In this document: positions 14,044 to 41,612 of the stretch, one piece after another | How the letters are laid out: every line of letters begins with the position of its first letter | Numbering within the stretch: the stretch's first letter is position 1 | The notes under the pieces: generated by a model | Seen by the model: only the letters and a program-made list of their open reading frames with translations | The model's database searches: none | Told to the model about the DNA's origin: nothing | DNA from: Escherichia phage UoN_LG358_1 | DNA length: 64,000 bases | Direction: 5' to 3' (one strand) | Sequence record: OK570374 | Position numbers and translations under genes: made by a program

Positions 14044-15068
14044 ACTCCAATCTTTGAGTAATTCTTAAGGCGAAGTTGAGCCATCAAACCCGAAGATATA
14101 TTTTCGGAAATATATTTTTCGATGTCTTCAACTTTCGCCCCTTCATTTTTTATCATATCATTAATGTCTTTTTCTTTCCATTGAGATTTATCCCAAAACA
14201 CAACTCTTTCGCCAGCGTCTATCAAACGCTTCATTCGCTTGATTGTGTCTTCTTTTCTTGGTTCATGGTCCATAATCCATACTCTATCTTCTTTAAATGG
14301 AACCAAATCCAAATCAATAGCGCCACCGGTGATGGCAATAGCATTGCCCAAGAACAATGAGTCTATCGGGCCTTCTAATACAAAAATATTTTGACCGGTC
14401 TTTGCTGTGTCTAATCCGTATATTTTTGTTGCATGTTCGTTTCGTTTAATTGTTATGTATTTTTGAGGGGCGTCTTTACGCAATGCTCTTCCTTGAAAAC
14501 TTTCAATAATACCTTTCTCATTAAAGATTGGAATTACTAAACGAGGCTCATTACGTTCTGTTTTATAAGTTCCGGGATTAACGGAATTCACCAAAGCTGG
14601 CCATTCCATCGTAAAATACAAACGGTTCCAACGAGATTTTGGAATACAACGATGTTTAACGTATTTTATAATAGGATGCTCTTCTGACAAACTATCTAAG
14701 CGGCTGCAATGAACTAATTTAATTCCTTCTGGTTCTTTAATTTCAACTTTTTTCACCTCTGGTTTTGTATCAGGCTTAAAAGTCATTTTGTCCTTTCTGA
14801 GTTCTAAAATAAACTCACGGTATAAATCAGGTTCATATTCCTTTAAATACACCCCAATTGGTTTTCCATAATCACAGTTATAACACTTCAAAAATACATC
14901 ATCGCCCGTGCCATAAGCCCAAAAACGAGCTTTTAATGCGTCTTTCTGTGAGTCGCCACAGACTGGGCAGCGGCAGTTTAACTTGAATTGGGATACGTTG
15001 TTTACTTGACGAAAGCGAGGTAAGTGAGATAATGCACGAAATGCATACTCGTTATGGACCCATGACAT
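14040..15068 (-). CDS. 61: DNA primase gp61
   Basis: 342 aa; zinc-ribbon CPVCGDS...CYNC; size matches T4 gp61. Confidence 0.9.
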   Translation of the reverse strand: MSWVHNEYAFRALSHLPRFRQVNNVSQFKLNCRCPVCGDSQKDALKARFWAYGTGDDVFLKCYNCDYGKPIGVYLKEYEPDLYREFILELRKDKMTFKPDTKPEVKKVEIKEPEGIKLVHCSRLDSLSEEHPIIKYVKHRCIPKSRWNRLYFTMEWPALVNSVNPGTYKTERNEPRLVIPIFNEKGIIESFQGRALRKDAPQKYITIKRNEHATKIYGLDTAKTGQNIFVLEGPIDSLFLGNAIAITGGAIDLDLVPFKEDRVWIMDHEPRKEDTIKRMKRLIDAGERVVFWDKSQWKEKDINDMIKNEGAKVEDIEKYISENISSGLMAQLRLKNYSKIGV

Positions 15069-15700
15069 TATACTCTCCTAAAATCGTCTATAATTTTTTG
15101 ATAACTAATATCCGGATATCCCAATTTAATTGCTAATTTTCTAAATTTAACATATCCTATATTACCATTAGAGTTCCAAAGCTCTTTTAATTCATCGTAG
15201 TATTTCCATTGAGGGCCTCTTTTCATTTCTGAAATTATTTTAGAAACATGTGGTCTACGTTTGCCATATGTTGCGCTTCCACTACCCTTTCTTTTTTCTG
15301 ACCACATCTTTTTGGTTTCAATGGAATGTGTTTTTCCATAAAATGGGTTTCCTTTACCGGAGTAAAGACTAGATTGAGTTTTTGATAATTGAGTTCTAAT
15401 CCAACTATATTCCTTATTGTTTCTGCTAGTATATTTTCCATTTATAGTTAATTGCTTAGCAGCGCATAATAACGAATAATATTGCTTTGTGTTCAATTTT
15501 TTATATATTTTTGATAACAATTGATGAACTACGAAATGTTCTGATGCTGTAAGCAAAACCAAATTATCATCACTATCTAGTCCTCCAATAGATTTTGGAA
15601 TTATATGATGTTTTTCTGAATAAAAATTTAATTTAGATTTATCCAGTCCTCGTAATTTAGCTTTGTTGATAATAGAATCATGTATCTTTTGATAATTCAA
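15068..15700 (-). CDS. HNH homing endonuclease
   Basis: 210 aa; HHIIPKSIGGLDSDDNLVLLTASEHFVVH canonical HNH; sits between primase 61 and helicase 41. Confidence 0.7.
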   Translation of the reverse strand: MNYQKIHDSIINKAKLRGLDKSKLNFYSEKHHIIPKSIGGLDSDDNLVLLTASEHFVVHQLLSKIYKKLNTKQYYSLLCAAKQLTINGKYTSRNNKEYSWIRTQLSKTQSSLYSGKGNPFYGKTHSIETKKMWSEKRKGSGSATYGKRRPHVSKIISEMKRGPQWKYYDELKELWNSNGNIGYVKFRKLAIKLGYPDISYQKIIDDFRRV

Positions 15701-15739
15701 TGCATTCTCCTAAGTGGCCTTATTTCTAAGGCCACTATA

Positions 15740-16210
15740 TTACAATTTCTTAAGATTAACTTTAATGCGCTTACGTTTTGAGGGGATTTGTTCTGGACCC
15801 TTGTTGGTTATTGCTCCGGTTGTGGTACCAGAGGCGATATTCTGGACACTTCCACCGGAATCACCGGCTACCATGTCCTCGAACATAGGGAGAGCATCAA
15901 ATATCTCTTTCTGTTCGGATTCGGTTATATTGTATCTAGAAGCGATTGAAGACCAAGCCGACATCATAGAAGCTATTCCATTTAAACCGGGAACAGTTGA
16001 CATCATTCGCTTCATTGAACGAACCGCAGCATGAAACGGAGTATACGCTGCCTTTTCTTCAGGGGTTGATGGTCGTTTAAGCACGCTGCCTTTTTCGTCA
16101 ATGATTTTTGCTTCATATGCGTTCCATTCGGTGAATGGTTTTTGCATTAGACGAATAAACTTATATGCATAAACGGCATCTATACCGTTTTTAATAGTGC
16201 TCATAAACAC
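15740..16210 (-). CDS. hypothetical protein (61.x region)
   Basis: 156-aa ORF in track. Confidence 0.45.
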   Translation of the reverse strand: MFMSTIKNGIDAVYAYKFIRLMQKPFTEWNAYEAKIIDEKGSVLKRPSTPEEKAAYTPFHAAVRSMKRMMSTVPGLNGIASMMSAWSSIASRYNITESEQKEIFDALPMFEDMVAGDSGGSVQNIASGTTTGAITNKGPEQIPSKRKRIKVNLKKL

Positions 16211-16222
16211 CTCCTACGATAT

Positions 16223-16420
16223 TTAATCAATAACAAAAACGGCTTTATTTCCGTTTGCGTCTGTTACTTCATAAGTATCTTCGTCATAGAGAGGTATAAA
16301 CCATTCTACATCAGTATCTGACATAACAGAAATAATATTTTCTGAAATTTTTGTCATTTCGTATTCTTCAAATAAACGAAACACTTCGATATTTGTACTT
16401 GTGCAAGTTGCAGTAGACAT
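16223..16420 (-). CDS. hypothetical protein
   Basis: 65-aa acidic ORF in track. Confidence 0.4.
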   Translation of the reverse strand: MSTATCTSTNIEVFRLFEEYEMTKISENIISVMSDTDVEWFIPLYDEDTYEVTDANGNKAVFVID

Positions 16421-16432
16421 TTAGCCTCTCAT

Positions 16433-16723
16433 TTAAAGTCCAATCCATTCCAGCACTTCAGGAACTGATTTATTTTCACAATAAAGATTAGTGCCAGCAA
16501 CTACCAAATCATTCTGGTCGACATCTTCAATGAGCATCTTTTGATTCGCATTAGCTCCAGCAAGAAGGTCTTTAATTAGCTTAGGTTTTACCGTATCCCA
16601 ATCACCTTCGACAAATTTAAGGCATTGAATAGAATTATAATCAGCTACTCCCGGAGTTGCATGGGCTGGAACTGCTGAACATGATGCTACTACCAATACG
16701 AGACTTGCAATTAACTTTTTCAT
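16433..16723 (-). CDS. sp: periplasmic protein with signal peptide, probable Spackle (Sp)
   Basis: MKKLIASLVLVVASCSAVPAHA signal peptide from ATG 16723; about 97 aa; T4 sp position between 61 and 41. Confidence 0.5.
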   Translation of the reverse strand: MKKLIASLVLVVASCSAVPAHATPGVADYNSIQCLKFVEGDWDTVKPKLIKDLLAGANANQKMLIEDVDQNDLVVAGTNLYCENKSVPEVLEWIGL

Positions 16724-16751
16724 TATTACTCTCCAGTTTGTTGATAAAGTA

Positions 16752-16781
16752 ATAGTATCACATCCTTCCATGGATGTAAAC
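16752..16781 (-). promoter_or_regulatory. T4-type early promoter (conserved cassette with CCATGG in spacer)
   Basis: Plus AATAGTATCACATCCTTCCATGGATGTAAACGG; reverse complement gives GTTTAC-18-TACTAT. Confidence 0.4.
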
Positions 16782-16783
16782 GG

Positions 16784-17008
16784 TCAACTCAAACTTTTCA
16801 TTGCTTCTTCAAACGTTAATTTTTTAACTGAAAGATACCGCGCCGAGCTAATTTTCTTACCATTGCTAAGGACGACCAGTGTCCCGTAGTCCCATCCTGA
16901 TAAATCTATTGAGTTCCATATATCAACACATACTTGTAGTGACTCATCCGCTACTATGAACTTCTCGTGACCATCTCGGTCACGATTGGCAATTAAAACA
17001 TAAATCAA
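16784..17008 (-). CDS. hypothetical protein (dmd position)
   Basis: 74-aa ORF immediately downstream of gene 41. Confidence 0.4.
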   Translation of the reverse strand: MIYVLIANRDRDGHEKFIVADESLQVCVDIWNSIDLSGWDYGTLVVLSNGKKISSARYLSVKKLTFEEAMKSLS

Positions 17009-18444
17009 AATTTAAGTTCCTCTGCAAGTGCGTCCAGCTTAGCTCGGGCTGATGTCTGGTCCGCGCGTTGTTGTCTATTAGCCTCGGCTTTTCGTTGCTG
17101 AGCTCCGGATGTTTCAGTAACTGGAGTTGGCTGAGTTCCACCTTCCTGTGCAATTTCAACCCAGCGTTGATTTCCTTTCTTAACGCCTACCGCAAACTTA
17201 TTCCAAATATTTTTATCGCCATAACGAGATTTAATCTGCTTGATGAGTTGTTGTCCCATCTGAGCAAGTTCTTCTGTCTCAATCACAGCAAGCATGAAGT
17301 CCGCCGTTGCCGGTAAGCCAGCTGATTCTGCAATGTCGGACATATTCATATCAGAAGCATCCCATGCACCACGACCAACCTGAGCCGCAGACCAGACGAC
17401 AGTTTCTGATTCTACCGCCAGCGCACGGAGTTCTTCGGCAATTGCTTTCACTAAAGTGTAACTGTTTTCAGTATAAACACGAATACGGCAAGAACCACAT
17501 ATTCCTAGATAGTCAATCATAATGATATCAGGAACAAAATTCTTTTTAAGTTTTAACTCATTTAGTAAAGCTCTAAATGTGTTCGCATTAGCTCCGCCGG
17601 TAGGATATTGTTTAATGATTAAACGGCCAAGAGTATTTTTATCTCGCCATTTTTCCATCTTACCTTTGTATTCTGCATATGACACATTGCCGTCATCAAT
17701 ATCATCCAAAGATACATCAAGTAAGTTAGCATCAATACGTTTAGCGCAGACCTCCTCGGCCATCTCCATGGAGATATAAAGAACATTCTTACCAGTTTGA
17801 AGATAATCAGCTGCTAAAGAACACAATCCAAGAGACTTACCAACGTTAACACCAGCCATGAGAATGTTGAGAGTGCCAGTTTCTGCCCCGCCCTTAGTGA
17901 TACGGTTCAAAATATTCATCAAGAATGGAACTTTACGAGCCTTGTTCTGATACGCTAACCAACGAGCTTCATAATCTTCCATCCAATCATGACCGACATA
18001 AGAGTCAAAACTAATAGAAAGAGCTTGACGCATAATGTCTGGAATTGCTCCAACATCCGGTAATTTTTTGTTTCTTTTTTCTGGCGGTAGTTCAGCGTTC
18101 GTTTGAATTTCAATGATTTTTGATGTTGCATTATACATCGCATGAGACTGTACATATTTCTCAGTCTCTTTTACCAACCATGCTTGGTCTTCTGGCGTAT
18201 CTGCTAATTTATCAATTAATTTTTTGGCTTGTTCAGCTTCAGATTCACCTAGAGTTGAATTGTCTAACGCAATATTCAAAGCATTGATTGAAGGGACAGA
18301 TTGATATTCGTTGATATGTTTTTGTAATAAGTTAAACACATTTTTAGCCGGGCCATGTTCAAAATATTCTGAATCCATATATGGCCAAACTTTTGCGAAA
18401 TATCCTTGATTAAAAATAAGATGCGATAATATTGTTTCTACCAC
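17005..18444 (-). CDS. 41: replicative DNA helicase gp41 (DnaB-like)
   Basis: 479 aa; Walker A GVNVGKS and DnaB-family architecture; size matches T4 gp41. Confidence 0.9.
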   Translation of the reverse strand: MVETILSHLIFNQGYFAKVWPYMDSEYFEHGPAKNVFNLLQKHINEYQSVPSINALNIALDNSTLGESEAEQAKKLIDKLADTPEDQAWLVKETEKYVQSHAMYNATSKIIEIQTNAELPPEKRNKKLPDVGAIPDIMRQALSISFDSYVGHDWMEDYEARWLAYQNKARKVPFLMNILNRITKGGAETGTLNILMAGVNVGKSLGLCSLAADYLQTGKNVLYISMEMAEEVCAKRIDANLLDVSLDDIDDGNVSYAEYKGKMEKWRDKNTLGRLIIKQYPTGGANANTFRALLNELKLKKNFVPDIIMIDYLGICGSCRIRVYTENSYTLVKAIAEELRALAVESETVVWSAAQVGRGAWDASDMNMSDIAESAGLPATADFMLAVIETEELAQMGQQLIKQIKSRYGDKNIWNKFAVGVKKGNQRWVEIAQEGGTQPTPVTETSGAQQRKAEANRQQRADQTSARAKLDALAEELKF

Positions 18445-18454
18445 GGTAACCTCA

Positions 18455-18814
18455 TTAAAATAATTTGAAACGTTTTTTATTACGCTCAGCTAACGCTTGC
18501 TCAATTTGAATTTTAACACATTTTTCAACATGCGGAGCTAGTTCTGCTTTTCTATCTTCGGATAATGTAGAAAAATCTACAGAAATTTCGTTTCCATTGT
18601 GATTTATTGATGTGACATAAACTATATGCGAAGACCCATCTTCTAATGTTAGCAAAATTTCTTGTACTATATTAGCCATTGCCTTTTTGACAATATCTAA
18701 TGATTTTTGGTAAACTCTTTCTGTCCTCTCAAATTCCCCCTCCTGAGAGGGGGCTTCTTCGACGACTTCAAGATTTAAATCTAATTCGCTTAAATCATAA
18801 TCGTCTTGTTTCAT
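18455..18814 (-). CDS. hypothetical acidic protein at the gene 40 position
   Basis: 119-aa ORF between 41 and uvsX, as T4 gp40. Confidence 0.4.
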   Translation of the reverse strand: MKQDDYDLSELDLNLEVVEEAPSQEGEFERTERVYQKSLDIVKKAMANIVQEILLTLEDGSSHIVYVTSINHNGNEISVDFSTLSEDRKAELAPHVEKCVKIQIEQALAERNKKRFKLF

Positions 18815-19977
18815 TATTCGTCCATCATAGAGTCAAGGTCATCTTCAATTGCTGCCGGAGACGGAGCATGAGAACCTTCGGGAGCTTTGAAAACCTCAGT
18901 TTTTGAATTAATCAATGCATCAACTTCAGCATCAACAACCGCATTACTATCAATTGCGCCCAGTTGATATTTACGTTTAATTGCATCACGGAATGGTTGA
19001 TGCTTGAACATCGGTCCCCAGAAATCTACGCATGATGTAGCTGCGGCGCGCCATGATTTTTCTTCACGAACCATTTCACCGGTTTCAATGTCCAAATATT
19101 CGCGAGCATACCAACCATTTTTTGGTTTAACTACAAACCCAAGCTCCAATGCCATTTCAAGCAAACCGGAATACGGGTCAATACCACCATCAAATTTAAC
19201 ATCAATAAAGAACTTAGATTTCTCTTTAACTGTACGAGATTTTTCTGCGTTTAAAACAAACTGATAACCTTGCAAATCAGTACCGTCTTTAATCTGACGT
19301 TTGCCGATAATGAACACGGTATCTGCAGAATACATCGGGCCAGTACCACCGGTCATTACCGTTTTACTGAACATTTCAATAGTTTCAATTGTATGGTTAA
19401 CTGCAACACATGGAATGTTCTTAATACTGAAATATGGAGTAACGATACGGAACAGAGATTTCAATGCTTTCGCACGTGTCATATCTGCAACCGATTTTTC
19501 ATTCAACGCGTCTTCAGTTTCTTTCTTGGAAGCGAGGTTACCAATTGAGTCGATGAATACAATAACCTTTTCACCACGCTCAATTTCTTCCAGCTGATTT
19601 ACCATATCAATCTTAAGTTGTTCAACAGACTGAACAGGAGTATGAACAACACGGTCAGGGTCAACGCCCATAGATTTCAGATAAGCCGGAGTAATACCGA
19701 ATTCACTATCATAGAACAGACAAATTGCATCTGGATGTTTTGTCATATAAGCACTGACCATTGTCAGAGACATATTCGATTTAAAGTGCTTTGACGGACC
19801 AGCAAAGATTGTTAAACCAGACTGCATACCACCATCTAATGCCCCACTGATTGCAATGTTCAGCATCGGAATTTTAGTACGGATAACGTCTTTTTCGTTG
19901 AAGAATTTTGACTTAGTTAGTTCCGCGGTCATTTTAGAAGTGGATGCTTTAATCAGACGAGATTTTAAATCAGACAT
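18814..19977 (-). CDS. uvsX: UvsX recombinase (RecA-like)
   Basis: 387 aa; MSDLKSRLIKASTSKMTAELTKSKFFNEKDV... near-identical to T4 UvsX N-terminus. Confidence 0.9.
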   Translation of the reverse strand: MSDLKSRLIKASTSKMTAELTKSKFFNEKDVIRTKIPMLNIAISGALDGGMQSGLTIFAGPSKHFKSNMSLTMVSAYMTKHPDAICLFYDSEFGITPAYLKSMGVDPDRVVHTPVQSVEQLKIDMVNQLEEIERGEKVIVFIDSIGNLASKKETEDALNEKSVADMTRAKALKSLFRIVTPYFSIKNIPCVAVNHTIETIEMFSKTVMTGGTGPMYSADTVFIIGKRQIKDGTDLQGYQFVLNAEKSRTVKEKSKFFIDVKFDGGIDPYSGLLEMALELGFVVKPKNGWYAREYLDIETGEMVREEKSWRAAATSCVDFWGPMFKHQPFRDAIKRKYQLGAIDSNAVVDAEVDALINSKTEVFKAPEGSHAPSPAAIEDDLDSMMDE

Positions 19978-20210
19978 TCATTTTTTCCATAAGTCTCCAT
20001 TATATTTTTCTCATAGGTTTAAAGGATAGAGTAATTATATCAAAACAAATTTAAAGCGATTTAACTTTTATTACGCACTTAATTGGTGAGTTGACCATAG
20101 ATTTTCGGGGTTTAGCCATTTTAACCTCAGGTACATCCTCAGTTCTTTTAATCCAACTTTTGTATGGACAGTATTTTTCTTTCTTGGTCATGATATTTCC
20201 GGTTTAAATT

Positions 20211-20235
20211 TTTGAAAGAAGGTACACTAGAAGTA
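20211..20235 (-). terminator. possible terminator or structured element downstream of beta-gt
   Basis: Imperfect inverted repeat GGTACACTAGAAGTATACC followed by a U-rich tract in the minus orientation. Confidence 0.3.
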
Positions 20236-29764: not shown

Positions 29765-31446
29765 TTTTCCATTACCGTGAATCTGCCAACTTTCTTCATC
29801 TGAAGATGTTGCCCATAATCCTGCGGGTCATGGTCTTTATGGCTTATGATAAAGATATTACTATCAGTCATTCCATTGAGAATTGTTCCTACTCGCTTAA
29901 TACCTTCATTATCAAACGCGCCATCATAAACTTCATCAAGAAAGAGACAGTTAATTTTAACATTAGAAACTTTTTCAGCAATGTCTCGCCACGTGAACAG
30001 CAACGCAATATCAATACGAGCTTTTTCGCCTTGGCTGAATGACGCATAACTGAATTCTTCGCGCCCGCGAGATTTAATAGTTTCGGTGAATTCTTCGTTC
30101 AAAGTAAAGACATAATCAGCTTCCATAATTTTAAGATACTGATTAATCTGTTTGTTGAACATCGGAATATATTTGCTAATAATAGCTCCCTTGATACCCG
30201 AATCTTTCAGCATTTCAGTTAAAATGCCTCGATGATATTTTTCCATAACCATATTGGATTTGGTATCAACTATTTTATTCAATTCTTCGTTAAGCGTTTT
30301 AATCTCATCGGCATGATTGATGAATTCTTTTGATGCTTTTTCAATCGCCGCTTTTACTTTTTTAGCCTTTTCTACTGTTGAAATTAAAGTTTGCTTTTTA
30401 GATTTTATGTCTTGAGCAAGTTCACGTTGCGTTCTAACGTTGCTCTCATATTCATGCACTAGTGTCTCTAGATTGGCTCTATGACTTTCTAACGACTCTG
30501 ATTTATGTTTACATTCATTAATCTTATCGTTAATCTGAGTGACTAGAGATGACCCAGAGTCTAATTGTTGCATGCATGTTGGGCATGAACCTCCAGAATG
30601 ATACAAAGAAACAACCTTGTTATATGAGTCAATTTTAGACTTAATCAACAGAGTTTGATTACCAATTTCAGTAAACGCGGACCGAGGGTCTTCATCAAGC
30701 ACGATAGATGTTAAACGCTCAGTTGCTTTTTCAATTTCGGATTTGATAGAACGTGCTTCAGTCGCAAGTTCATCATACATGGTCTGAAAACGAGCTATAT
30801 TTTCTCCTGATAGCTTTTTCTGGCGTTCAACGTTCTCTTCATAAATTTTAATCTGTTGGATAATTCCGTCTTTCTTTGCGTCCAACACAGAGACTTGTGA
30901 ATTAATTTCTCTTATATGAGATTTATTCAATTTATCCATTTCAGCTAATGTAGAAACTTCGAGCAAGTCTTCTACTAACTTCCGCCGAGCTGGAGTACTC
31001 AAACCCATGAACGGTGTATAACCAGCTGTACCAAGCACAACTACTTGCTTAAAGCTGGAATAAGACATTTTGATAAGTTCTTCAAAATAGCTTTGAAAAT
31101 CTTTAACAGAAGCTGCCTCGTCCAGGCGAACTCCGTCTCGAGTTATTTCAAAGATATTCGGCTTTTGACCGCGCTTTATATAAAAATGCTTACCGTCATA
31201 CTCCATCCAAAGCTCTACTAACATATCTTTTTTATTAATAGAGTTTACTAGTTGTCCTTTCTTAATATCACGGAACGGTTTGCCAAATAAAGCAAATGTA
31301 ATAGCTTCCAGCATGGTACTCTTACCACCACCATTTTTGCCGGTGATGAGAGTTTTTTGTACCTTATCAAGTTGAATATCAATTGGAACTTGTCCAACAG
31401 ACATTATATTAGAATATTTTACTCTATTAAGTTTAAAGGTTTTCAT
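29761..31446 (-). CDS. 46: recombination endonuclease subunit gp46 (Rad50/SbcC-like)
   Basis: 561 aa; Walker A GKNGGGKST, coiled-coil middle with CPTC zinc hook, signature/Walker B at C-terminus. Confidence 0.9.
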   Translation of the reverse strand: MKTFKLNRVKYSNIMSVGQVPIDIQLDKVQKTLITGKNGGGKSTMLEAITFALFGKPFRDIKKGQLVNSINKKDMLVELWMEYDGKHFYIKRGQKPNIFEITRDGVRLDEAASVKDFQSYFEELIKMSYSSFKQVVVLGTAGYTPFMGLSTPARRKLVEDLLEVSTLAEMDKLNKSHIREINSQVSVLDAKKDGIIQQIKIYEENVERQKKLSGENIARFQTMYDELATEARSIKSEIEKATERLTSIVLDEDPRSAFTEIGNQTLLIKSKIDSYNKVVSLYHSGGSCPTCMQQLDSGSSLVTQINDKINECKHKSESLESHRANLETLVHEYESNVRTQRELAQDIKSKKQTLISTVEKAKKVKAAIEKASKEFINHADEIKTLNEELNKIVDTKSNMVMEKYHRGILTEMLKDSGIKGAIISKYIPMFNKQINQYLKIMEADYVFTLNEEFTETIKSRGREEFSYASFSQGEKARIDIALLFTWRDIAEKVSNVKINCLFLDEVYDGAFDNEGIKRVGTILNGMTDSNIFIISHKDHDPQDYGQHLQMKKVGRFTVMEK

Positions 31447-32275
31447 TTAATATCCGTCTGTCAAATTCGGCTACTATAGCTTGTAAAGAACTTGTTATGG
31501 GATGCCCGAGTTTAATAAGTTCTTTTGAAAATGTAGAATATCTAGGTTTATTCATTTTAATCCACTCTGTATAAAGCAAATCAAAATTTTGCCATTGATA
31601 CGATTTTCTTCTGGATTTTAAATGAGCCTCTCTAATTTCGTCATTCTTCCAACTTTGAGAAACTCCCAATGATAAAGATTTACGATAATCTAAATTTTTA
31701 GATGAGAGTCTAGTTGCATTTAAATGCTTAATTTTATTTTCTGGATTTTCAAACCACTCTTTAGTTTTCTTAGATACTAAAGACTTAAATTCATTTGAAT
31801 TTACTCGTTCCAGGTGAATTTTTAAATTATCGGAATTTTCAAACCATCGTTTGACTGCTTGGCTAATTTTTATTCTGTTTTCTGCTATTGAATAATAACT
31901 GGACATTTTGATTGAAATAGCCTTTGAAATTTCAGTAGAAACTTTTGAATATATTTTAGCCATTTCTTCAAATTCTTCAAAACTACATTTATAAGCAGTT
32001 TTGCTATTATTCATTCTATTAATAGCTTGCAACATTCTATAATCTTTAGTTTCAGACAATATAGCATGTGCAATAAAATGGTTATAATGTGTTAAATGCA
32101 CAATATTTGACGGGTCTTTAGCATATTCTGGAAAAATGGACTTTGGTAAAATATGATGAGCTTGAGTATGTCCTTTGTTTAACTTGGTTGAATTAGTTTT
32201 AATAAATTCTACATACTTATTAACGCCTTCCCATTGAGGGAAGGCTGCTTTTAATATAGTCTCAGCGTCAATCAT
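31433..32275 (-). CDS. HNH homing endonuclease inserted between genes 46 and 47
   Basis: 280 aa; HHILPKS...NIVHLTHYNHFIAH HNH motif plus repeated WFEN-type motifs in the C-terminal half; overlaps both neighbours. Confidence 0.65.
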   Translation of the reverse strand: MIDAETILKAAFPQWEGVNKYVEFIKTNSTKLNKGHTQAHHILPKSIFPEYAKDPSNIVHLTHYNHFIAHAILSETKDYRMLQAINRMNNSKTAYKCSFEEFEEMAKIYSKVSTEISKAISIKMSSYYSIAENRIKISQAVKRWFENSDNLKIHLERVNSNEFKSLVSKKTKEWFENPENKIKHLNATRLSSKNLDYRKSLSLGVSQSWKNDEIREAHLKSRRKSYQWQNFDLLYTEWIKMNKPRYSTFSKELIKLGHPITSSLQAIVAEFDRRILNENL

Positions 32276-33294
32276 TGATTTTGGACCTCGATATAAAGTT
32301 GATTAGCATATTTTATAACTGCTTTCCTGTCATCGTTGGATAAATCAGGTAAAGAGTTAATATATTCTTCCATAAGTTCAAGTAAGCTTTTAACTTCTAC
32401 TTCAGCTTCTTCATCAACTTCAAGAGAATTATCAATCTTTGAAACGGTACGAAGCTCATGAACAACTTTTTCGAGTTCGCTTTCAAATTTTGGAAGGTCT
32501 TTATCAACTTCTGTAATAATGACACGAACTGAAATATTTTTGTAACGATTAATATCAAATTTACCCTTAAATGGATAAATTATTTTTTGATGCCAACATG
32601 TTTCGTTTTCGATAAAATCAAAACTGTCATCTTGAGTGTCCTGTATCCAAAAACCTCGCGGGTCATTTTCGTCTCCCGCAGTAAGTGTCCATGGTGTGCC
32701 AATATATTTGACATTAGCGGCACTAGAGATAGTATGGAAGTGTCCAGAACGAACATGTTTATATTTTTTAAGGAAATCAGGTTCCAACCCGTGGGATTTT
32801 AATCCTTTGTAGTAATAAAAACCACTTAATTCCCAATGACCAATGCAAATATCAGCATCAGATGTTTTGATGTGATTCATTATATCGGACGCGTTCTCTT
32901 CGCACATCCACGGAATCATATCAATCAAACAACCATCAAAATCTACAGTTTCAGGAATATCATGAATTATGATATGGTCATATTTACCGAGAATCTCAGT
33001 AATCGCGTTAGGGCGAAGTGTGTTCTTATAATGCATGTCATGATTACCAATTATGGTATGCATCGTAATACCAGCTTCATCCAATAGCGTTGCTATCTCA
33101 CGGGCAAATTCCATAGTCTTATGAGTGATAGCTTTACGAACGTCAAAGATGTCGCCGTACTGAACCCATGTAGTTATGCCATGCTTTTTAGAATATTCAA
33201 TCTTTTGACGTATTCCATCTCGCTGGATATTCTGAAGCCAAGGGTCATCGCCCTTAACTCCTAAATGCCAATCACCTGTGTGAAGAATTTTCAT
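32272..33294 (-). CDS. 47: recombination endonuclease subunit gp47 (Mre11/SbcD-like)
   Basis: 340 aa; MKILHTGDWHLG phosphoesterase motif I and GNHD motifs. Confidence 0.9.
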   Translation of the reverse strand: MKILHTGDWHLGVKGDDPWLQNIQRDGIRQKIEYSKKHGITTWVQYGDIFDVRKAITHKTMEFAREIATLLDEAGITMHTIIGNHDMHYKNTLRPNAITEILGKYDHIIIHDIPETVDFDGCLIDMIPWMCEENASDIMNHIKTSDADICIGHWELSGFYYYKGLKSHGLEPDFLKKYKHVRSGHFHTISSAANVKYIGTPWTLTAGDENDPRGFWIQDTQDDSFDFIENETCWHQKIIYPFKGKFDINRYKNISVRVIITEVDKDLPKFESELEKVVHELRTVSKIDNSLEVDEEAEVEVKSLLELMEEYINSLPDLSNDDRKAVIKYANQLYIEVQNQ

Positions 33295-35363: not shown

Positions 35364-35651
35364 CTAATTAGAAGAACGAAGAATGCAATACATCTGAAAA
35401 AGTTGTTCACCAATTTCTTTAAATTGGTCAAATAAAAGAAAATAAGCTGTGTATGAATACAAGTCATTATCTTCCCAAAAATCGTTGAAACTATTAAACA
35501 TTTCGGTGTAATCTTTTTGGTTGAGCTTTGAAGCATGAGAATGCCAATATACTCCAGGCATCGCATCGGTTTCAAATTTAATTCCCATCATATAATCAAC
35601 ACTAAAAATACCAAAATTCTCAATAATTAATTTAAGTTCTGTTCTTTTCAT
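35364..35651 (-). CDS. hypothetical protein
   Basis: 95-aa ORF in track. Confidence 0.4.
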   Translation of the reverse strand: MKRTELKLIIENFGIFSVDYMMGIKFETDAMPGVYWHSHASKLNQKDYTEMFNSFNDFWEDNDLYSYTAYFLLFDQFKEIGEQLFQMYCILRSSN

Positions 35652-35689
35652 TGCTCCTCACATGTTTCGGCAAGTTTGTTCACAATTAA

Positions 35690-35941
35690 TCATAATTCAA
35701 ACGCAGTAAAACTATCAGCAACTAAACTGGCAAATAGATGAAACGGAATAATGTTTTCCTCGTCTTCAACTTCTTCAATGAATTGCTCATATAAAATCTC
35801 GTTGGTATAATCACGGAAAATAGCTATATCGCTTTCCCAACATGCTCCAGTTAATTCGTTTAAAAAATAAACTGAGCCATCATTATGGATTATCCATTCT
35901 CTATAATTTTCTAAAACAATAGAAATTTGTTTATATTTCAT
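35690..35941 (-). CDS. hypothetical protein
   Basis: 83-aa ORF in track. Confidence 0.4.
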   Translation of the reverse strand: MKYKQISIVLENYREWIIHNDGSVYFLNELTGACWESDIAIFRDYTNEILYEQFIEEVEDEENIIPFHLFASLVADSFTAFEL

Positions 35942-36168
35942 AGAACAAGTTCCTTAGCAGCTTCTAAAGCTTTATCCATTGAACTGAATGCATCTACTGA
36001 GTGATAATCTTTACCTGTGTATTCATATAACCACCAGGCGTCAAAGTCTTCTTCAATAACGTAACCAACACCGTTCTTCGAAGTACCTTCAATCATCAGT
36101 CTCCCATCTTCAACAGAAGCATCAAATCCTGCGAGTTCTAAATCTGCGACAATTTGTTCTTTATTCAT
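35938..36168 (-). CDS. hypothetical protein
   Basis: 76-aa ORF in track; ATGA overlap. Confidence 0.4.
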   Translation of the reverse strand: MNKEQIVADLELAGFDASVEDGRLMIEGTSKNGVGYVIEEDFDAWWLYEYTGKDYHSVDAFSSMDKALEAAKELVL

Positions 36169-36424
36169 TCAGATATTCCTCAAGCTCTTTTCTTGTTAAT
36201 CCTTCATTCCACATAGTAGCAGGATTAGGACAATCAGTGTTGCTAGTACTAATAGGATAATATCTCATTTCTTTACCAAGAGCATACAGACATCCAAATG
36301 CTTCGTAATAATTGACAGCTTGGTAAGTTTCAATCTGTTCTGGCAATGAAATAGCCTTTGCGCCTGTAATAGTGGGTTTCAAGTAAACTACAATAAGTGC
36401 TATGCCTTCGCCGAATTCGCTCAT
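36161..36424 (-). CDS. hypothetical protein
   Basis: 87-aa ORF in track. Confidence 0.4.
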   Translation of the reverse strand: MSEFGEGIALIVVYLKPTITGAKAISLPEQIETYQAVNYYEAFGCLYALGKEMRYYPISTSNTDCPNPATMWNEGLTRKELEEYLNE

Positions 36425-36759
36425 TTTGCCGCCTTAACAATTTTGAGGTCAACAAATCCTTTCTTGCGCTGATTTTTCATTTTACGAATAGTGCGTTCGG
36501 AAATTTCAGGTTTTTTATTTGTTGGAATACCAAAAGCATCTAGATTAAATTCATCAATAATATAACAAACAATCAATTCACGAATTCGAGCTTTTCCGAT
36601 CTTCTGGTCGTTCTCTTTCATAGTTCCATGAAGAGCAGTTTCCCATTCATCTAAAATTTCAGGCGTGACAATAACAGATTTGAATTCACCATCAACTTTC
36701 ATTTCTTCAACTTTAGGGAAAACAAAAGAGTTCAGAACGTTTTTGATAGCTTGTGACAT
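36421..36759 (-). CDS. hypothetical protein
   Basis: 112-aa ORF in track. Confidence 0.45.
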   Translation of the reverse strand: MSQAIKNVLNSFVFPKVEEMKVDGEFKSVIVTPEILDEWETALHGTMKENDQKIGKARIRELIVCYIIDEFNLDAFGIPTNKKPEISERTIRKMKNQRKKGFVDLKIVKAAK

Positions 36760-36869
36760 GTTATTTTCCTCATTGGTCGTTAGATGTTTGACATAGAGAT
36801 TTTAATTTAAAATCCCTATAGCAAACTCAACTCATCTGTATGTTTTTAGCATTATGAACAATTTTGAAA

Positions 36870-37055
36870 TTATCCTTCGACATACCAACCTTTATCTTGC
36901 CACGCTTCGCCTTTATACCAACGAGTCATATCATAACCGCCATTGTCGCGAACCGTTCCATTATCATAAATGAAATACTCATCTGATGTGAAATATTCAT
37001 GACGAATACACTTGCCGGTAATTTTTGAAGTCATCACAGCTTCTTGGTAAGTCAT
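36870..37055 (-). CDS. hypothetical protein
   Basis: 61-aa ORF in track. Confidence 0.35.
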   Translation of the reverse strand: MTYQEAVMTSKITGKCIRHEYFTSDEYFIYDNGTVRDNGGYDMTRWYKGEAWQDKGWYVEG

Positions 37056-37333
37056 TATGCACCTCTTACAGCATCAATCAATTCTCGTACCACAGTATCC
37101 AATTCACTTGTGTATACATCCGGAACCAGAGCTTTAATACAATTACTCATTCGTCCCGGGTAGTGTTGAGCATGATTGAGCGAAACATCTGTCCGACAAC
37201 CCTTCGCCCGGAAAACAACTTCTTCGTCAGAGATTTCAACTGTGAGTGGCACTTTATCGGTGGATGAAGTACGAATAATCATTTCATACTTAATCATACT
37301 CGTTTTAGATACGATAATCATCTTTAACTCCAT
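37055..37333 (-). CDS. hypothetical protein (start at ATG 37333)
   Basis: Track ORF starts at GTG inside the promoter; first ATG lies downstream of the predicted transcription start. Confidence 0.4.
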   Translation of the reverse strand: MELKMIIVSKTSMIKYEMIIRTSSTDKVPLTVEISDEEVVFRAKGCRTDVSLNHAQHYPGRMSNCIKALVPDVYTSELDTVVRELIDAVRGA

Positions 37334-37351
37334 TTGTGTGGTATGAGGTAA

Positions 37352-37380
37352 TAGTAACACAGTTTTTGGAGGATGTAAAC
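37352..37380 (-). promoter_or_regulatory. T4-type early promoter
   Basis: Plus ATAGTAACACAGTTTTTGGAGGATGTAAAC; reverse complement GTTTAC-18-TACTAT. Confidence 0.4.
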
Positions 37381-37398
37381 GGTTGATATGAAAGAAAA

Positions 37399-37421
37399 GA
37401 GGGACCGCTAGGGTCCCTCGG
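37399..37421 (-). terminator. putative intrinsic terminator downstream of nrdH
   Basis: GAGGGACC-GCTA-GGGTCCCTC hairpin followed by a U-rich run in the minus orientation. Confidence 0.5.
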
Positions 37422-37471
37422 ATTTAAAGTCAATATATTATATTAGAATGATGCAAGAATGGGATAGAGTA

Positions 37472-37783
37472 TCACTCTTCGTCCAGGTTATAACCTAAGA
37501 CGCTAAGTTGTTCTAATAGGTGGGATTTGTTGCGTATTCTTTGGTTGTTCAAAAAGACGATAGGATATCGTAGAGCTAAACTCGGATAACTACCTACACG
37601 TTTAGCCGCTTCAGTAATTCGGTCTCTGTCGTAGACAAATCCAACTTCGTTTTCGTTTGGAATTATTACATCGTAAAAAGCATAAGGGATATTTTCATCA
37701 TCCAAAGTTTTACGAATTGAATAGCAGGCCGGACACCGGCCTACTGTCTCAGGAATTCCGTATATTTCTATTTTTGCAGACAT
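37472..37783 (-). CDS. nrdH: glutaredoxin-like protein NrdH
   Basis: 103 aa; IEIYGIPETVGRCPAC redox motif; located upstream of nrdG/nrdD. Confidence 0.55.
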   Translation of the reverse strand: MSAKIEIYGIPETVGRCPACYSIRKTLDDENIPYAFYDVIIPNENEVGFVYDRDRITEAAKRVGSYPSLALRYPIVFLNNQRIRNKSHLLEQLSVLGYNLDEE

Positions 37784-38262
37784 CTTATTTCTTCAATAAG
37801 CGCTTCAATTTGTTTAAGTTTATCTTCAATTGAAGCTTTGGAGGTTGATTCAATTATGTATTTCTCGTCAACTTCATATAGAACATCTTTGTCGTAGAAG
37901 TTGAATAAACAGCTTTGGTCAAAATCGTCCGCGTCAAAAATACGCTTATCATGACTAAGAATTCTCATGACTTCAGCATGTTCACCATACCCATTTAATT
38001 CTAGTACTTTGAATGCGCCGCCCTTGAGCTCGTCATAAAGTTTTTCATCACCTTTAGCCCGGCCCGCAGATAACCATTTGCTTACTTCCGCCGGGTTATA
38101 AGCGTACCATTGACCTGCTTTGAATTCAGTAATCATATTAATATTGTCCAAAGAAAATGAAAGCATAAAGAGCAGGGAACTCTTCACCAAAACGCTCAAT
38201 GTAACTGTACATGTACACTTGAAGTTCATGAATCCAAGGATAGTGAATCTGCATTTAACCAT
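37768..38262 (-). CDS. hypothetical protein (true start probably an internal ATG at 38166 or 38136)
   Basis: Track ORF overlaps the nrdG 3' end; internal Met codons give a shorter non-overlapping product. Confidence 0.4.
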   Translation of the reverse strand: MVKCRFTILGFMNFKCTCTVTLSVLVKSSLLFMLSFSLDNINMITEFKAGQWYAYNPAEVSKWLSAGRAKGDEKLYDELKGGAFKVLELNGYGEHAEVMRILSHDKRIFDADDFDQSCLFNFYDKDVLYEVDEKYIIESTSKASIEDKLKQIEALIEEIRCLQK

Positions 38263-38717
38263 TCCTCATTGTGTTGTTTCCATAGCCGCTGGTTATCTGA
38301 ACCACGCCATGGCTTATCAGTTGGGTTATCTTGTTCATATTTACCATCAATAATAACATCAATGTATTTTAGCAATTCAAGGTGCTTGATGTCTTCAAAC
38401 TTGTAACCAGTCCACATCCAGATATCTTTTTTGGGAAAACGCGCTTTAACCCATTTAACTAGAGCTTCAATATCTTCTCTGTTGCCTCGATAAAGAGGGT
38501 CTCCTCCAGTAAGAGTAAGTCCTTGGATGTATGGTTTTGAAAGATGCTCTGCGATTTCTTTTACTGTATTAGAGTTAAATGTCTCACCGTTGCAAGGGTT
38601 CCAAGTGCTTTTATTATAGCATCCTTGGCATTTATGAATACAACCCGTAACGAAAAGAACGACCCTGCAACCAGGGCCATTCACAAAATCGCATGGATAA
38701 ATTCTATCATATTTCAA
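38226..38717 (-). CDS. nrdG: anaerobic ribonucleotide reductase activating protein NrdG (radical SAM)
   Basis: 163 aa; Cys-rich N-terminus CDFVNGPGCRVVLFVTGCIHKCQGC typical of NrdG. Confidence 0.85.
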   Translation of the reverse strand: MKYDRIYPCDFVNGPGCRVVLFVTGCIHKCQGCYNKSTWNPCNGETFNSNTVKEIAEHLSKPYIQGLTLTGGDPLYRGNREDIEALVKWVKARFPKKDIWMWTGYKFEDIKHLELLKYIDVIIDGKYEQDNPTDKPWRGSDNQRLWKQHNEEWLNADSLSLDS

Positions 38718-40530
38718 TGTGTTTTGTCCTATGCATGATTTCTTTATTCTTACCTAGGTTAAATCCTCGATCAGAAGGATTACCGAGATATCCGCAAGTC
38801 CTTCTAATAGTATTCATCTTCTTAGGATTAGTCTCGCCACAAACAGTACATTCAAATCCGTTTTCAGTTGGTTTCATTTCATGAGTTGACCCGCAACTCA
38901 AACATTTATCAACTGGCATATTAACACCAAAATAATCCAGTTTTTCTACAGCATAATCCCAGACTGCTTCAAGAGCTTGAATATTTCTCTTCATATCAGG
39001 CAATTCAACATAAGATATGTGTCCACCCTTTGCAATGAAGTGGTATTTTGCTTCTCGGTCAATTTTTTCAAATGGAGAAATTTTTTCTTCAACTGAAACA
39101 TGGAAGCTATTAGTATACCATCCTTTGTCGGTTACGCCTTTGACTATTCCGTGTTCGGCTGCGTCAATTTTACAGAAACGATAACATAACGATTCTGCCG
39201 GGGTACTATAAAGGCTAAAAGCATATCCTGTTTCTTCGGTCCATTCGCGGAGATAATCATTCATGTGTTTAAGCACTAATTCACCGATGCCTTTGTAGGT
39301 CATTAGTTCAAGCTCGTGAATTCCGATATATCCAAGCGAAATAGAACTTCTACCATTTTTAAACAACTCAATGATTTCATCATCCGGTTTCATTCGAACG
39401 CCAAAAGCTCCTTCTTGATACAGAATCGGAGCCACAGAAGCTTTTACACCTTTTAACGATTCAATACGAAGCAGCAGCGCGTCTTTACAAATCTTCATTC
39501 GGCAGTCTAGTAGATGCATGAGCATGTTTAAATCTGTTTTGCCGTTGACCTGAGAATCCAAAGCTATACGAGGAAGATTTAATGTAACAACACCTAAATT
39601 ATTGCGTCCGTCAAGAATAAATTTACCATCGGAATTTTTCCATGCGCTCAAAAAGCTTCTGCACCCCATTGGAGATACAGGAATAGGAGAACCAGTAATC
39701 TTACGATTATTTTTGGCGCTAATAATATCGGGATACATTCGCTTAGAAGCGCATTCTAAAGCTAGTTGTTTGATATCATAATTTGGGTCTTCACTGTGGA
39801 GATTTAAACCTTCTTCAACGAACATAACCAATTTAGGAAAAATTGGAGTAATTCCATGACGACCTAATCCTCGAATACGATTTTTAAGAATAGCTTGTTG
39901 AATTAGTTTTTCTTCCCAAGATGTCCCCATACCAAATGTAATGGTAACGAAAGGCGTTTGGCCGTTAGAGCTGAAAAGTGTATTAACTTCATATTCATAT
40001 CCTTGAAAAGCATCGAATACATCTTTTTCTGTTTTCTCTTGAGCATATAATTCAGCGTCCGTAATATGATATCGGCGAGCGTCTTCGATATGTTTGTTGA
40101 AAGTTGCTTCTACATAAGGAGCTAGTACTTGGTCAACATTAGCAAATGTAGTTCCACCATATTGATGAGAAGCTACTTGAGCTGTAATTTGAGCCATTAC
40201 GGCAGTTGCTACACCGATTGAATTTGATGTTTCAATTTCAGCATTACCGAGTTTAAACCCATTTTGAAGCATTCCGGCTAAATCTACTAAGCAACAGTTA
40301 GTAAACGGAAGCGATGGTGAATAATCCATGTCATGAAAATGGATAATTCCTTTATCATGAGCATCTAGTATAGAGACTGGAATGACCTTACGGGCGACAT
40401 GTTTAGAAACAATGCCGGCCATAAGGTCACGTTGGGTGGGAAATACCCGCGAATCTTTATTCGCGTTTTCATTTAAAAGGTCTGTATTAGTTCTGTCAAA
40501 CAGACCTTTGATTTCGGTTTCAATTGTCAT
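38707..40530 (-). CDS. nrdD: anaerobic ribonucleoside-triphosphate reductase NrdD
   Basis: 607 aa continuous ORF (no intron); C-terminal glycyl-radical motif RRTCGYLG and CxxC zinc site. Confidence 0.9.
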   Translation of the reverse strand: MTIETEIKGLFDRTNTDLLNENANKDSRVFPTQRDLMAGIVSKHVARKVIPVSILDAHDKGIIHFHDMDYSPSLPFTNCCLVDLAGMLQNGFKLGNAEIETSNSIGVATAVMAQITAQVASHQYGGTTFANVDQVLAPYVEATFNKHIEDARRYHITDAELYAQEKTEKDVFDAFQGYEYEVNTLFSSNGQTPFVTITFGMGTSWEEKLIQQAILKNRIRGLGRHGITPIFPKLVMFVEEGLNLHSEDPNYDIKQLALECASKRMYPDIISAKNNRKITGSPIPVSPMGCRSFLSAWKNSDGKFILDGRNNLGVVTLNLPRIALDSQVNGKTDLNMLMHLLDCRMKICKDALLLRIESLKGVKASVAPILYQEGAFGVRMKPDDEIIELFKNGRSSISLGYIGIHELELMTYKGIGELVLKHMNDYLREWTEETGYAFSLYSTPAESLCYRFCKIDAAEHGIVKGVTDKGWYTNSFHVSVEEKISPFEKIDREAKYHFIAKGGHISYVELPDMKRNIQALEAVWDYAVEKLDYFGVNMPVDKCLSCGSTHEMKPTENGFECTVCGETNPKKMNTIRRTCGYLGNPSDRGFNLGKNKEIMHRTKHIEI

Positions 40531-41612
40531 TTTAAGCCTTTCTTTAAATAATAGACATAATCTTCAAGCCATTCTATTGTCAATAGAATTTCTTCGGGGC
40601 TTTTTAAATTAGCCTTTATTTCTTTAAAAGAATTTGTCATTATTTTAGAAGTATGTTCAATTTTAATAGTTTCTACTAAATTTAAAGTCGAAAGTCTCTC
40701 AATGTAAGACTTTTTATCTTCAATTTGTAATTTAATAATCTCGCCAGATTTAACAAATTTAGAACAGCTTCCACGATTAGAACCAAAGAATTCTTCGACT
40801 TCGGAATTTGACGCAAACTTTTTACCAGTTTCCACATGTTGAAACTTCCATCGCTGACGTCGAATTGAAGGATGTAGTGTCCATCGATCTTTTATAATAT
40901 CAAGTTTTCCATTTAATAAATTTGTAATATGAGACGATGAAATATCATTTTTTCTTGCAAATTCAGCTTGATTTATTACTTCGATTTCGCACGAATTTAG
41001 TTCATCCCAAATTTTAAATTTAGAAACAGAATGATACACTGATAATTTTTCTTCCTTTGAGCGACCAAATTGCCAGCCAGAATCTAAATACTTTTGAACA
41101 TCATCGGGTTTAACATATTTGGTTTTTTGACCAATTTTATACATCATCGGCCATGAAACATGCTCATTTCCTTTGTCAAAATTCATCCATCGAGCAATAT
41201 CTTCTTCTGTTAAATCATCGAAGCAGTTAGGGTTAAAATGCCCGCCAATTTGTTTGTTTAACCACATAGGGTCTCGTAATACGTCATTAGCAAGTTGCAT
41301 TTCCATTTCAGCCATTAAAGTTTTACCCCAAGTTGGATACCATCCAACAATTAGATATTCTTTAGGCTTTATACCATTTTCCAACATCGAATTCAATTCA
41401 TTTGATGAAGATGTATAAGTCTTCCAATCTGATTCTTCAAATCCTTTTTTAGGACCGCGTTTAAACGTTGAAGGGGCAGCTTTAATTCTTTTCCAAATCT
41501 TTTTAGCGCCTACATACTTTTTACCGTCTTCAAACGTGATTACATAAACAAATCCAATATTATTTTTAATATCTGTTTCTTCAAAAACAGACCAATGACC
41601 ATAATCTGACAT
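40527..41612 (-). CDS. GIY-YIG homing endonuclease (Seg-like), free-standing next to nrdD
   Basis: 361 aa; N-terminal GFVYVITFEDGKKYVGAKK matches the GIY-(10-11)-YIG motif; long C-terminal putative DNA-binding region. Confidence 0.6.
   Translation of the reverse strand: MSDYGHWSVFEETDIKNNIGFVYVITFEDGKKYVGAKKIWKRIKAAPSTFKRGPKKGFEESDWKTYTSSSNELNSMLENGIKPKEYLIVGWYPTWGKTLMAEMEMQLANDVLRDPMWLNKQIGGHFNPNCFDDLTEEDIARWMNFDKGNEHVSWPMMYKIGQKTKYVKPDDVQKYLDSGWQFGRSKEEKLSVYHSVSKFKIWDELNSCEIEVINQAEFARKNDISSSHITNLLNGKLDIIKDRWTLHPSIRRQRWKFQHVETGKKFASNSEVEEFFGSNRGSCSKFVKSGEIIKLQIEDKKSYIERLSTLNLVETIKIEHTSKIMTNSFKEIKANLKSPEEILLTIEWLEDYVYYLKKGLK

Follow-up and report, generated by a model that had tools for sequence, protein, structure and literature searches.

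Free-standing homing endonuclease genes at three insertion sites in the early region of an S16-like phage

The 64,000-nucleotide stretch of Escherichia phage UoN_LG358_1 that we analysed (sequence record OK570374; the whole stretch is referred to as the window) carries three free-standing homing endonuclease genes (HEGs): HEG1 between a 61.1-like open reading frame (ORF) and the primase gene 61, HEG2 between genes 47 and 46, and HEG3 upstream of nrdD. The interpretation that we favour, with a probability of about 85%, is that this is an S16-like phage with an STP4-a-like backbone and that its three HEGs are active or recently active and have spread by intronless homing. Specifically, HEG1 and HEG2 are cleanly present or absent at their sites among genomes whose flanks are 98-100% identical, and in comparisons with the relatives Melville, S16 and SEA1 no DNA of the window has diverged less than HEG2 and HEG3.

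Megablast against a phage collection placed the window in Gelderlandvirus, the S16-like, T4-like group of Salmonella phages. Its closest relative is STP4-a, to which it is 99.7% identical across most of the 64 kb and 100% identical in the region of the primase gene; the exact combination of cassettes in the window is matched by no record in the collection. The order of the early region is that of T4 (rIIA ... 39 ... dda-srd-mod ... 61 ... 41 ... 43 ... 46-47 ... 55 ... nrdD ... tRNAs), every gene treated below is on the minus strand, and the GC content of the HEGs is 0.29-0.32 compared with 0.36 for the whole window. Comparisons of the flanks of the primase gene and of nrdD and HEG3 were anchored on gene coordinates. 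An earlier reading of the letters alone (the sequence-only reading) had flagged five ORFs as homing endonuclease genes or HNH-like candidates; all five were found on the minus strand where it had placed them (Table 1).

Insertion sites of HEG1, HEG2 and HEG3

HEG1 contains the HNH motif EKHHIIPKSIGG...DNLVLLT..EHFVVH, which begins HHIIPKSIGG, together with a separate DNA-binding module (Pfam NUMOD3, 25.4 bits, over the cut-off of 20.4); it matches the phrog_655 family 'homing endonuclease' at 5e-52 and the N-terminus of T4 MobB at 44% over 110 amino acids (E=3e-25). Motif, NUMOD3, phrog_655 and MobB together uphold the homing-endonuclease identity of what had been described as a canonical HNH ORF between primase 61 and helicase 41. 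Relative to S16, Melville and SEA1, HEG1 forms a clean insertion of 622 bp in the window and in STP4-a, the only close relative in which it is found. In the HEG-less genomes, the hairpin GGCCTTAGAAATAAGGCC is followed by ACTTAGGAGAATAT and then by the primase ATG. The insertion is flanked by duplicated copies of the primase Shine-Dalgarno (SD) sequence TTCTCCTAA and places HEG1 between this SD and the ATG, such that HEG1 takes over the old ribosome-binding site of primase while its own end, AGGAGAGTATAATG, provides primase with a new SD and with a TAATG stop/start overlap. The primase gene itself differs from that of S16 at 7 of 1029 nucleotides, and six of the seven differences are packed into codons 2-11, adjoining the insertion (P=7e-9). 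This cluster is a candidate for either an altered homing site or a short co-conversion tract.

The HEG1 site is shared well beyond this phage. Members of the same family (49-63% protein identity) lie directly upstream of primase, with the same architecture, in Karamvirus VPA32, Kanagawavirus PEi20 and Jiaodavirus 5N. Because family and architecture recur upstream of primase in four genera, we suggest that the HEG1 lineage consists of endonucleases specialised for one site. With regard to expression, the HEG1 TTG lies six nucleotides after the captured primase SD, a two-codon mini-ORF (ATG-CAT-TGA) overlaps the start (15700-15745), and the hairpin, which is conserved, lies just upstream; TTG start, mini-ORF and hairpin might keep HEG1 expression low. 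A scan for consensus promoters and terminators around HEG1 gave nothing above the expectation from shuffled sequence.

HEG2 carries the motif HHILPKSI...NIVHLTHYNHFIAH, matches phrog_655 at 2.9e-36 and aligns with T4 MobB and MobC at E~1e-7 and also with HEG1; Pfam searches of HEG2 matched no family, a NUMOD-type DNA-binding module included. Its ends overlap both neighbours, gene 47 by 4 bp and gene 46 by 14 bp. The earlier description of an HNH ORF wedged between and overlapping the two recombination genes is, therefore, correct on the strength of phrog_655, the motif, the MobB/MobC matches and both overlaps. HEG2 is present in the window, Melville, SEA1 and CF-SP2 but not in STP4-a, S16, CGG4-1 or STML-198; the latter four keep a homologue of 46.1 where HEG2 has replaced it, which in STP4-a is a 68-amino acid ORF with 30% identity to T4 46.1.

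Around HEG2, the haplotype at informative sites changes from STP4-a to Melville and then back to STP4-a, delimiting a patch of ~1.2 kb in which HEG2 is flanked by 63 bp of gene 46 and ~340 bp of gene 47. The boundary in gene 46 is sharp: all 24 differences from STP4-a fall in codons 1-21 and none in the other ~1620 nucleotides (P~5e-35). Between HEG2 and the copies in Melville and SEA1 there is a single difference in 843 nucleotides (99.9% identity), whereas gene 46 differs from that of Melville at 81 of 1686 (P=1e-16). Over the first 72 nucleotides of gene 46, the window matches T2 at 59 and T4 at 57 positions, with an identical run of 26 nucleotides, compared with 48 for the native STP4-a allele; moreover, the GC content of the travelling 63-bp segment is 0.25 compared with 0.43 for the native Gelderlandvirus allele. 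Because the co-transferred 5' end of gene 46 resembles that of T2 and T4, HEG2 apparently entered Gelderlandvirus from a Tequatrovirus-like donor; that is, HEG2 and the 5' end of gene 46 appear to have been transferred together between genera from an E. coli T-even-type phage. In both T2 and F2, a homologue of HEG2 is found immediately upstream of gene 46; the T2 homologue is broken into two ORFs, and that of F2 has the same 14-bp overlap. T6 has one at a similar map position (position only). T4 lacks an HEG at the 46/47 site while its sister phage T2 has one.

HEG3 has an N-terminal SegE_GIY-YIG domain (Pfam PF19835, 2.3e-33, residues 9-122), matches phrog_7363 at 2e-193 and overlaps nrdD by 4 bp (ATGA). 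Its alignment with T4 I-TevII covers 268 amino acids (E=4e-7), and because identity is only 23.5%, the target specificity of HEG3 cannot be inferred from it. Domain, family, I-TevII match and overlap bear out the sequence-only reading of a GIY-YIG ORF abutting an intronless nrdD. The target gene of HEG3 is probably nrdD. The nrdD gene of T4 is a hot spot of homing in its own right: its intron encodes I-TevII, and mobC separates it from nrdG.

HEG3 is present at the same site in all 13 Gelderlandvirus records. It is identical over 1086 nucleotides to the copies of STP4-a, S16 and SEA1 and differs from that of Melville at three positions, while over the 1824 nucleotides of nrdD there are 3 differences from STP4-a, 27 from S16, 16 from SEA1 and 42 from Melville (Poisson P for the divergence of HEG3 versus nrdD, 1e-7 for S16, 7e-5 for SEA1 and 4e-8 for Melville). 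In ~47 kb of alignment, a run of 1163 bp centred on HEG3 is the longest that is identical to both S16 and SEA1, and the two longest runs identical to Melville comprise HEG2 (886 bp) and part of HEG3 (748 bp). Zero divergence of HEG3 beside a diverged nrdD argues for mobility within the genus, and the best reading of these data is a recent sweep of HEG3 to fixation within Gelderlandvirus.

We also considered that HEG3 has been domesticated, i.e. that it was fixed for a phage function such as excluding competitors or replacing gene 49 and is no longer mobile. Fixation at one site in the genus and translational coupling to nrdD are compatible with this idea, as is the fact that HEG3 occupies the position that gene 49 has in T4 (between pin and nrdD, plus a 54-amino acid ORF) while a homologue of gene 49 (endonuclease VII) was not found within the 64-kb window. 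However, the identity of HEG3 extends to synonymous sites, against 0.9-1.5% divergence in nrdD, as would follow from recent spread rather than long vertical descent. Moreover, the HEG3 family is sporadic, with only 84 phage records overall and varied contexts across T4-like phages: it lies upstream of nrdD with the same 4-bp overlap in RB16, follows pin without nrdD in phiR1-RT, adjoins aerobic ribonucleotide reductase genes in an Aeromonas phage and sits elsewhere in Vibrio phages. GIY-YIG homing enzymes are not known as resolvases of Holliday junctions of the endonuclease VII type. We consider domestication highly unlikely and favour a recent sweep.

Two further observations concern the neighbourhood of HEG3. 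A block of 450 bp (41778-42227; ORF 41851-42306) that contains pin, the gene for an inhibitor of the host Lon protease, is kept in the window and CGG4-1 and absent from STP4-a, S16, Melville and SEA1. We rejected this block as cargo of an HEG or as a tandem paralogue; there is no paralogy, and it is an ancestral pin gene that was lost elsewhere. Beside it, positions 41680-41772 contain a cluster of six substitutions specific to the window, suggestive of another recombination junction.

Table 1 Features of the window discussed in the text.
Feature	Position	Strand	Description
mobA-like HNH gene	3373..4180	-	Splits the gene for the large subunit of topoisomerase II; S16-type cassette, block 3204-4297
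srd orthologue, no homing gene	10070..10852	-	phrog_1400 5.6e-88; predicted N-terminal PacI-like His-Me finger, amino acids 1-115
Altered primase codons 2-11	15036..15065	-	6 substitutions (5 silent, 1 F/Y) versus HEG1-less S16
HEG1, free-standing HNH + NUMOD3 gene	15068..15700	-	210 amino acids, TTG start; motif, Pfam, phrog_655, MobB
HEG1 insertion block	15082..15703		622 bp; flanked by duplicated primase SD
Apparent co-conversion patch	31384..32611		Melville/SEA1 haplotype in STP4-a-type backbone; informative sites
HEG2, free-standing HNH (Mob-type) gene	31433..32275	-	280 amino acids; phrog_655, motif, MobB/MobC matches
nrdD	38707..40530	-	Uninterrupted 607-amino acid ORF without intron; presumed HEG3 target
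Identical run around HEG3	40517..41679		1163 bp; versus STP4-a, S16, SEA1
HEG3, free-standing GIY-YIG (SegE/I-TevII-like) gene	40527..41612	-	361 amino acids; Pfam, phrog_7363, I-TevII
ORF5, T2 'trna.1' family	63244..63741	-	165 amino acids from M27; predicted PacI-like domain and probable C-terminal helix-turn-helix
ORF5 cassette	63258..63761		504 bp; replaces 266 bp (tRNA-Asn and spacer) of STP4-a

Homing and passive exchange as explanations

Under the homing model, co-infection with a HEG-less relative would expose the DNA of this relative to cleavage by the endonuclease in or near primase 61, genes 46/47 or nrdD; phage recombination would repair the break from the HEG-carrying genome, and repair would copy the HEG together with a short flanking stretch (co-conversion). 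The T4 Seg and Mob enzymes, with co-conversion and marker exclusion, provide the mechanistic precedent (PMC2988022; PMC2330249); for HEG1-3, cleavage activity, the positions of cut sites and super-Mendelian inheritance are inferred. The comparison of insertion sites with relatives that lack the ORFs accords with this model: it revealed clean presence/absence, a donor patch, clustered changes in primase and low divergence of the HEGs. The domain searches likewise supported the HNH or GIY-YIG assignments of HEG1, HEG2 and HEG3. Through the same comparison, the proposal of the sequence-only reading that these ORFs mark recombination hot spots is borne out for the three HEGs.

Several observations weigh against this interpretation. 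The Pfam HNH score of HEG1 (21.0 bits, 3.7e-4) lies 0.4 under the cut-off of 21.4, and the gene starts with TTG. Within Gelderlandvirus (13 records), there is no empty HEG3 site, and differences in nrdD resume 11 bp from HEG3, leaving no co-conversion tract visible on that side. The T2/T4-like 5' end of gene 46 occurs also in T4, which has no HEG there; the diverged 63 bp need not be 'immunised', and the candidate explanation of this segment as a recoded 'immune' target is weakened accordingly. The mobA-like gene documents by the loss of its start codon that some homing genes are decaying. More generally, T-even phages recombine so freely that patches could move without an endonuclease.

The last point leads to an alternative in which the cassettes are passive, i.e. 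the endonuclease genes are inactive and the patterns arise from frequent general recombination and occasional deletion among co-infecting T-even phages. The genomes are indeed mosaics with many identical and diverged patches, genes other than HEGs (pin and that for an internal virion protein) also show presence/absence, the mobA-like HEG lacks a start codon, and the T2 homologue of HEG2 is split. Yet, three of the four largest cassette differences between the window and STP4-a are centred on endonuclease or endonuclease-like genes, the segments that have diverged least from the most distant relatives are precisely HEG2 and HEG3, HEG1-3 are intact ORFs with intact catalytic motifs, and the same gene family recurs at the same site in several genera, which argues for site-specific targeting. 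We conclude that purely passive exchange is unlikely and that intronless homing of HEG1-3 is the better explanation.

S16 has the mobA-like gene; STP4-a and Melville lack it. Relative to gp3 of S16, an 11-bp deletion has cost the window copy its ATG and first codons; because the first Met now follows the histidines of HHILPRS, the gene is probably a dead endonuclease gene. Including it, the window contains four HEGs and the candidate ORF5 described below. The density of homing genes, which the sequence-only reading had called high, is not, because four to five per 64 kb compare with six annotated in the first 50 kb of T4 and 15 in all (PMC2988022). Ten further window ORFs of unknown function were scanned for endonuclease families, and none were found. 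The proposal that the HEGs occupy loci where T4 has none holds for 61/41 and 46/47 but not for nrdD with its I-TevII and mobC; T4 also has segB in its tRNA cluster. Nor are the sites peculiar to this phage, given the HEG1-type genes upstream of primase in four genera, the HEG2-type genes upstream of gene 46 in T2 and F2, and the T6 homologue at a similar position. We found no specific literature on the insertion of homing genes at 61 or 46/47.

Srd, ORF5 of the tRNA cluster and other variable segments

The two remaining ORFs had been listed as HNH-like candidates with Arg in place of the catalytic His. This motif observation is correct for both, while their standing as homing genes differs. 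The ORF at 10070-10852 is 38% identical to T4 Srd over 264 amino acids, i.e. its full length (E=9e-48), and lies between dda.1 and mod (dda-dda.1-srd-mod) as in T4, STP4-a, S16 and Melville. Because relatives carry the same gene at the same site with no sign of mobility, it is not a homing gene but conserved T4 srd at the T4 locus.

ORF5 lies in a tRNA cluster between tRNA-Arg (63177-63253) and tRNA-Gln (63878-63953). Its start is at 63741 rather than 63819, because the first 26 codons of the longer version fall in sequence shared with STP4-a and homologues align from about residue 22-27. In the same interval, STP4-a (record L002, 11985-12250) has tRNA-Asn(gtt) and a spacer; because the ORF5 allele is without tRNA-Asn(gtt), the two alleles differ in tRNA content. 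The ORF5 cassette has one mismatch to the S16 copy, while its flanks are identical to STP4-a and have many differences from S16. The homologue of ORF5 in T2 is 'trna.1', an uncharacterised ORF of the T2 tRNA region. ORF5 is found in about half of the Gelderlandvirus records and has a patchy distribution in T4-like phages of Aeromonas, Klebsiella, Enterobacter and E. coli, very often within tRNA clusters. Because of this patchy spread and the S16-type insert in STP4-a-type flanks, ORF5 behaves like a mobile cassette.

The families of ORF5 and Srd share an invariant Arg at the His position and an invariant Tyr seven residues later in a loop. The spacing of the signature is identical in both (R, Y at +7, N at +11 and N at +20); in the N-terminal domain of Srd the invariant residues are R63, Y70, N74 and N83 (residues 1-115, window 10508-10852), T4 Srd retains all four, and the family of this domain has at least 1215 cluster representatives and no Pfam model. 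The best structural match of both ORF5 and the Srd N-domain is PacI and the beta-beta-alpha-Me fold was recovered; on these structural models, both are PacI-like His-Me finger folds without the His. Sequence comparisons gave no such relationship: Pfam searches with ORF5 and Srd returned no significant family, searches of PDB sequences with Srd and with profiles of ORF5 and the Srd domain returned nothing meaningful and no PacI homology, and BLASTP detected no similarity between ORF5 and Srd. Comparison of the ORF5 and Srd profiles (hhalign) set the motifs in register at a probability of 2% and E=0.025, which does not establish common ancestry. Shen et al. are said to have described zinc-binding Cys clusters in PacI in 2010; clusters of this type are not evident here, as invariant Cys residues are limited to C47/C49 in ORF5 and to C43 in Srd. 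Members of the PacI group of His-Me fingers (group 20) are mostly viral, have an attached helix-turn-helix-like domain and lack the catalytic His, for which a Tyr in the omega-loop substitutes (PMC5714182). Because this group dispenses with the His and the Srd-domain family is large, we interpret Arg at the His position as a family signature and not as a decayed HNH motif. Of the earlier claim for 63244-63819, it stands that ORF5 is a reasonable endonuclease candidate; it is of the PacI-type without His and not a canonical HNH protein, and it starts later.

What these proteins do is less certain. Judged from its architecture and distribution, ORF5 most likely is a non-canonical homing endonuclease. 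A more far-reaching proposal, which we regard as doubtful for now, is that trna.1/ORF5 represents an unrecognised family of free-standing homing endonucleases with a PacI-type active site (Arg and a loop Tyr as nucleophile) that would home into T-even tRNA clusters and displace tRNA-Asn, while Srd may be, or derive from, a nuclease. Alternatively, ORF5 could be a sequence-specific DNA- or RNA-binding protein, e.g. a regulator of the tRNA cluster, with a dead His-Me-like domain, as maybe also the Srd N-domain; we take this as a serious possibility somewhat short of even odds. The replacement of the general-base His by an invariant Arg and the lack of a Pfam or PDB sequence match would fit a binding protein, several His-less His-Me groups are inactive binders (PMC5714182), and Srd, with the same signature, is annotated as an RNase E activator and a sigma-factor decoy or anti-sigma factor and not as a nuclease. 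By contrast, PacI is active without the His by means of its omega-loop Tyr, an invariant Tyr occurs in the ORF5 and Srd families at what is apparently the corresponding position of the loop, and ORF5 has the architecture and distribution of an HEG and swaps as a cassette.

The content of HEGs and cassettes is apparently the main structural variable within Gelderlandvirus, and further sites vary in the relatives. In Melville, a gene annotated as a homing endonuclease separates the DNA polymerase gene from regA (L004 24722-25426), and SEA1 has a 'hypothetical protein' ORF that splits uvsX and two more hypothetical ORFs after soc and after gene 47 (L005 19034-19810, 12424-13374 and 34851-35471). 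A segment of 825 bp in STP4-a (L002 7409-8233) that includes the 'internal virion protein' gene STP4a_115 is missing from the window at ~59466. At 62220-62463, the window has a perfect 122-bp tandem duplication, the two copies being identical, of a sequence that is single-copy in STP4-a; this could be a real duplication or an assembly artefact. Finally, 119 bp at 6509-6627 have no megablast alignment to STP4-a, S16 or SEA1 (~116 bp in each) and align with Melville, while the flanks are 97-99% identical to STP4-a, S16 and SEA1, delimiting a small hypervariable segment.

Significance and comparison with known systems

Much of the mosaicism and marker exclusion of T-even phages is driven by free-standing homing endonucleases, and the window offers unusually clean natural examples: a backbone with 99.7% identity to STP4-a that differs mainly by endonuclease-centred cassettes, a mapped 1.2-kb co-conversion patch, and a short stretch of gene 46 that apparently arrived with the HEG from T-even phages of E. 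coli. S16-like phages are in development for biocontrol of Salmonella, and the loci converted in mixed infections bear on the stability of phage cocktails and on the choice of sites for engineering. A possible new question is posed by the PacI-like His-less domain in a tRNA-cluster ORF and in Srd; otherwise, concepts from T4 are unchanged.

The resemblance of ORF5 and Srd to PacI comes without detectable sequence similarity, and the helix-turn-helix of ORF5 is C-terminal. T4 Srd shares its full length and its neighbours dda.1 and mod with the ORF at 10070-10852, and the remark that this ORF is HNH-like fits T4 Srd as well. ORF5 is comparable to SegB, the homing endonuclease of the T4 tRNA cluster, in that it is likewise a small ORF between tRNA genes, next to tRNA-Arg, that alternates with a tRNA allele; SegB drives replacement of the T2 tRNA region including trna.1, the homologue of ORF5, and excludes this region in crosses (PMC2330249). 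The two proteins have no sequence relationship, SegB being a GIY-YIG enzyme and ORF5 a predicted PacI-like His-Me finger.

HEG3 shares the SegE-type GIY-YIG domain, aligns with I-TevII and is, like I-TevII, associated with nrdD. It differs in being free-standing rather than intron-encoded and in its length of 361 amino acids, compared with ~258 for I-TevII (777-nucleotide T4 coding sequence).

The closest parallels are with MobA-E of T4, of which MobE is the characterised member. The N-terminal HNH domain of HEG1, HEG2 and the mobA-like ORF is also that of MobB and MobC (E=3e-25 to 1e-6); like the T4 mob genes, the three are promoter-less, lie between conserved genes and have a patchy distribution. 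The insertion sites of HEG1 and HEG2 (61.1/61 and 47/46) are not used by any T4 mob gene, and their C-terminal DNA-binding regions differ from those of Mob proteins, the C-terminus of HEG1 resembling that of SegA (E=8e-11). The cassettes are without promoters of their own and are embedded in the translation of their neighbours, either by capture of an SD or by stop/start overlaps; mobE, mobA and mobC of T4 are also promoter-less cassettes between conserved genes with overlapping stop and start codons (PMC2988022). RefSeq already labels HEG1 and HEG3 of STP4-a and HEG2 of Melville as homing endonucleases, and the mechanism, intronless homing accompanied by co-conversion and marker exclusion, is well established for T4 (PMC2988022). 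It is, therefore, well supported that this case is an ordinary example of a well-known T-even phenomenon rather than a new kind of system.

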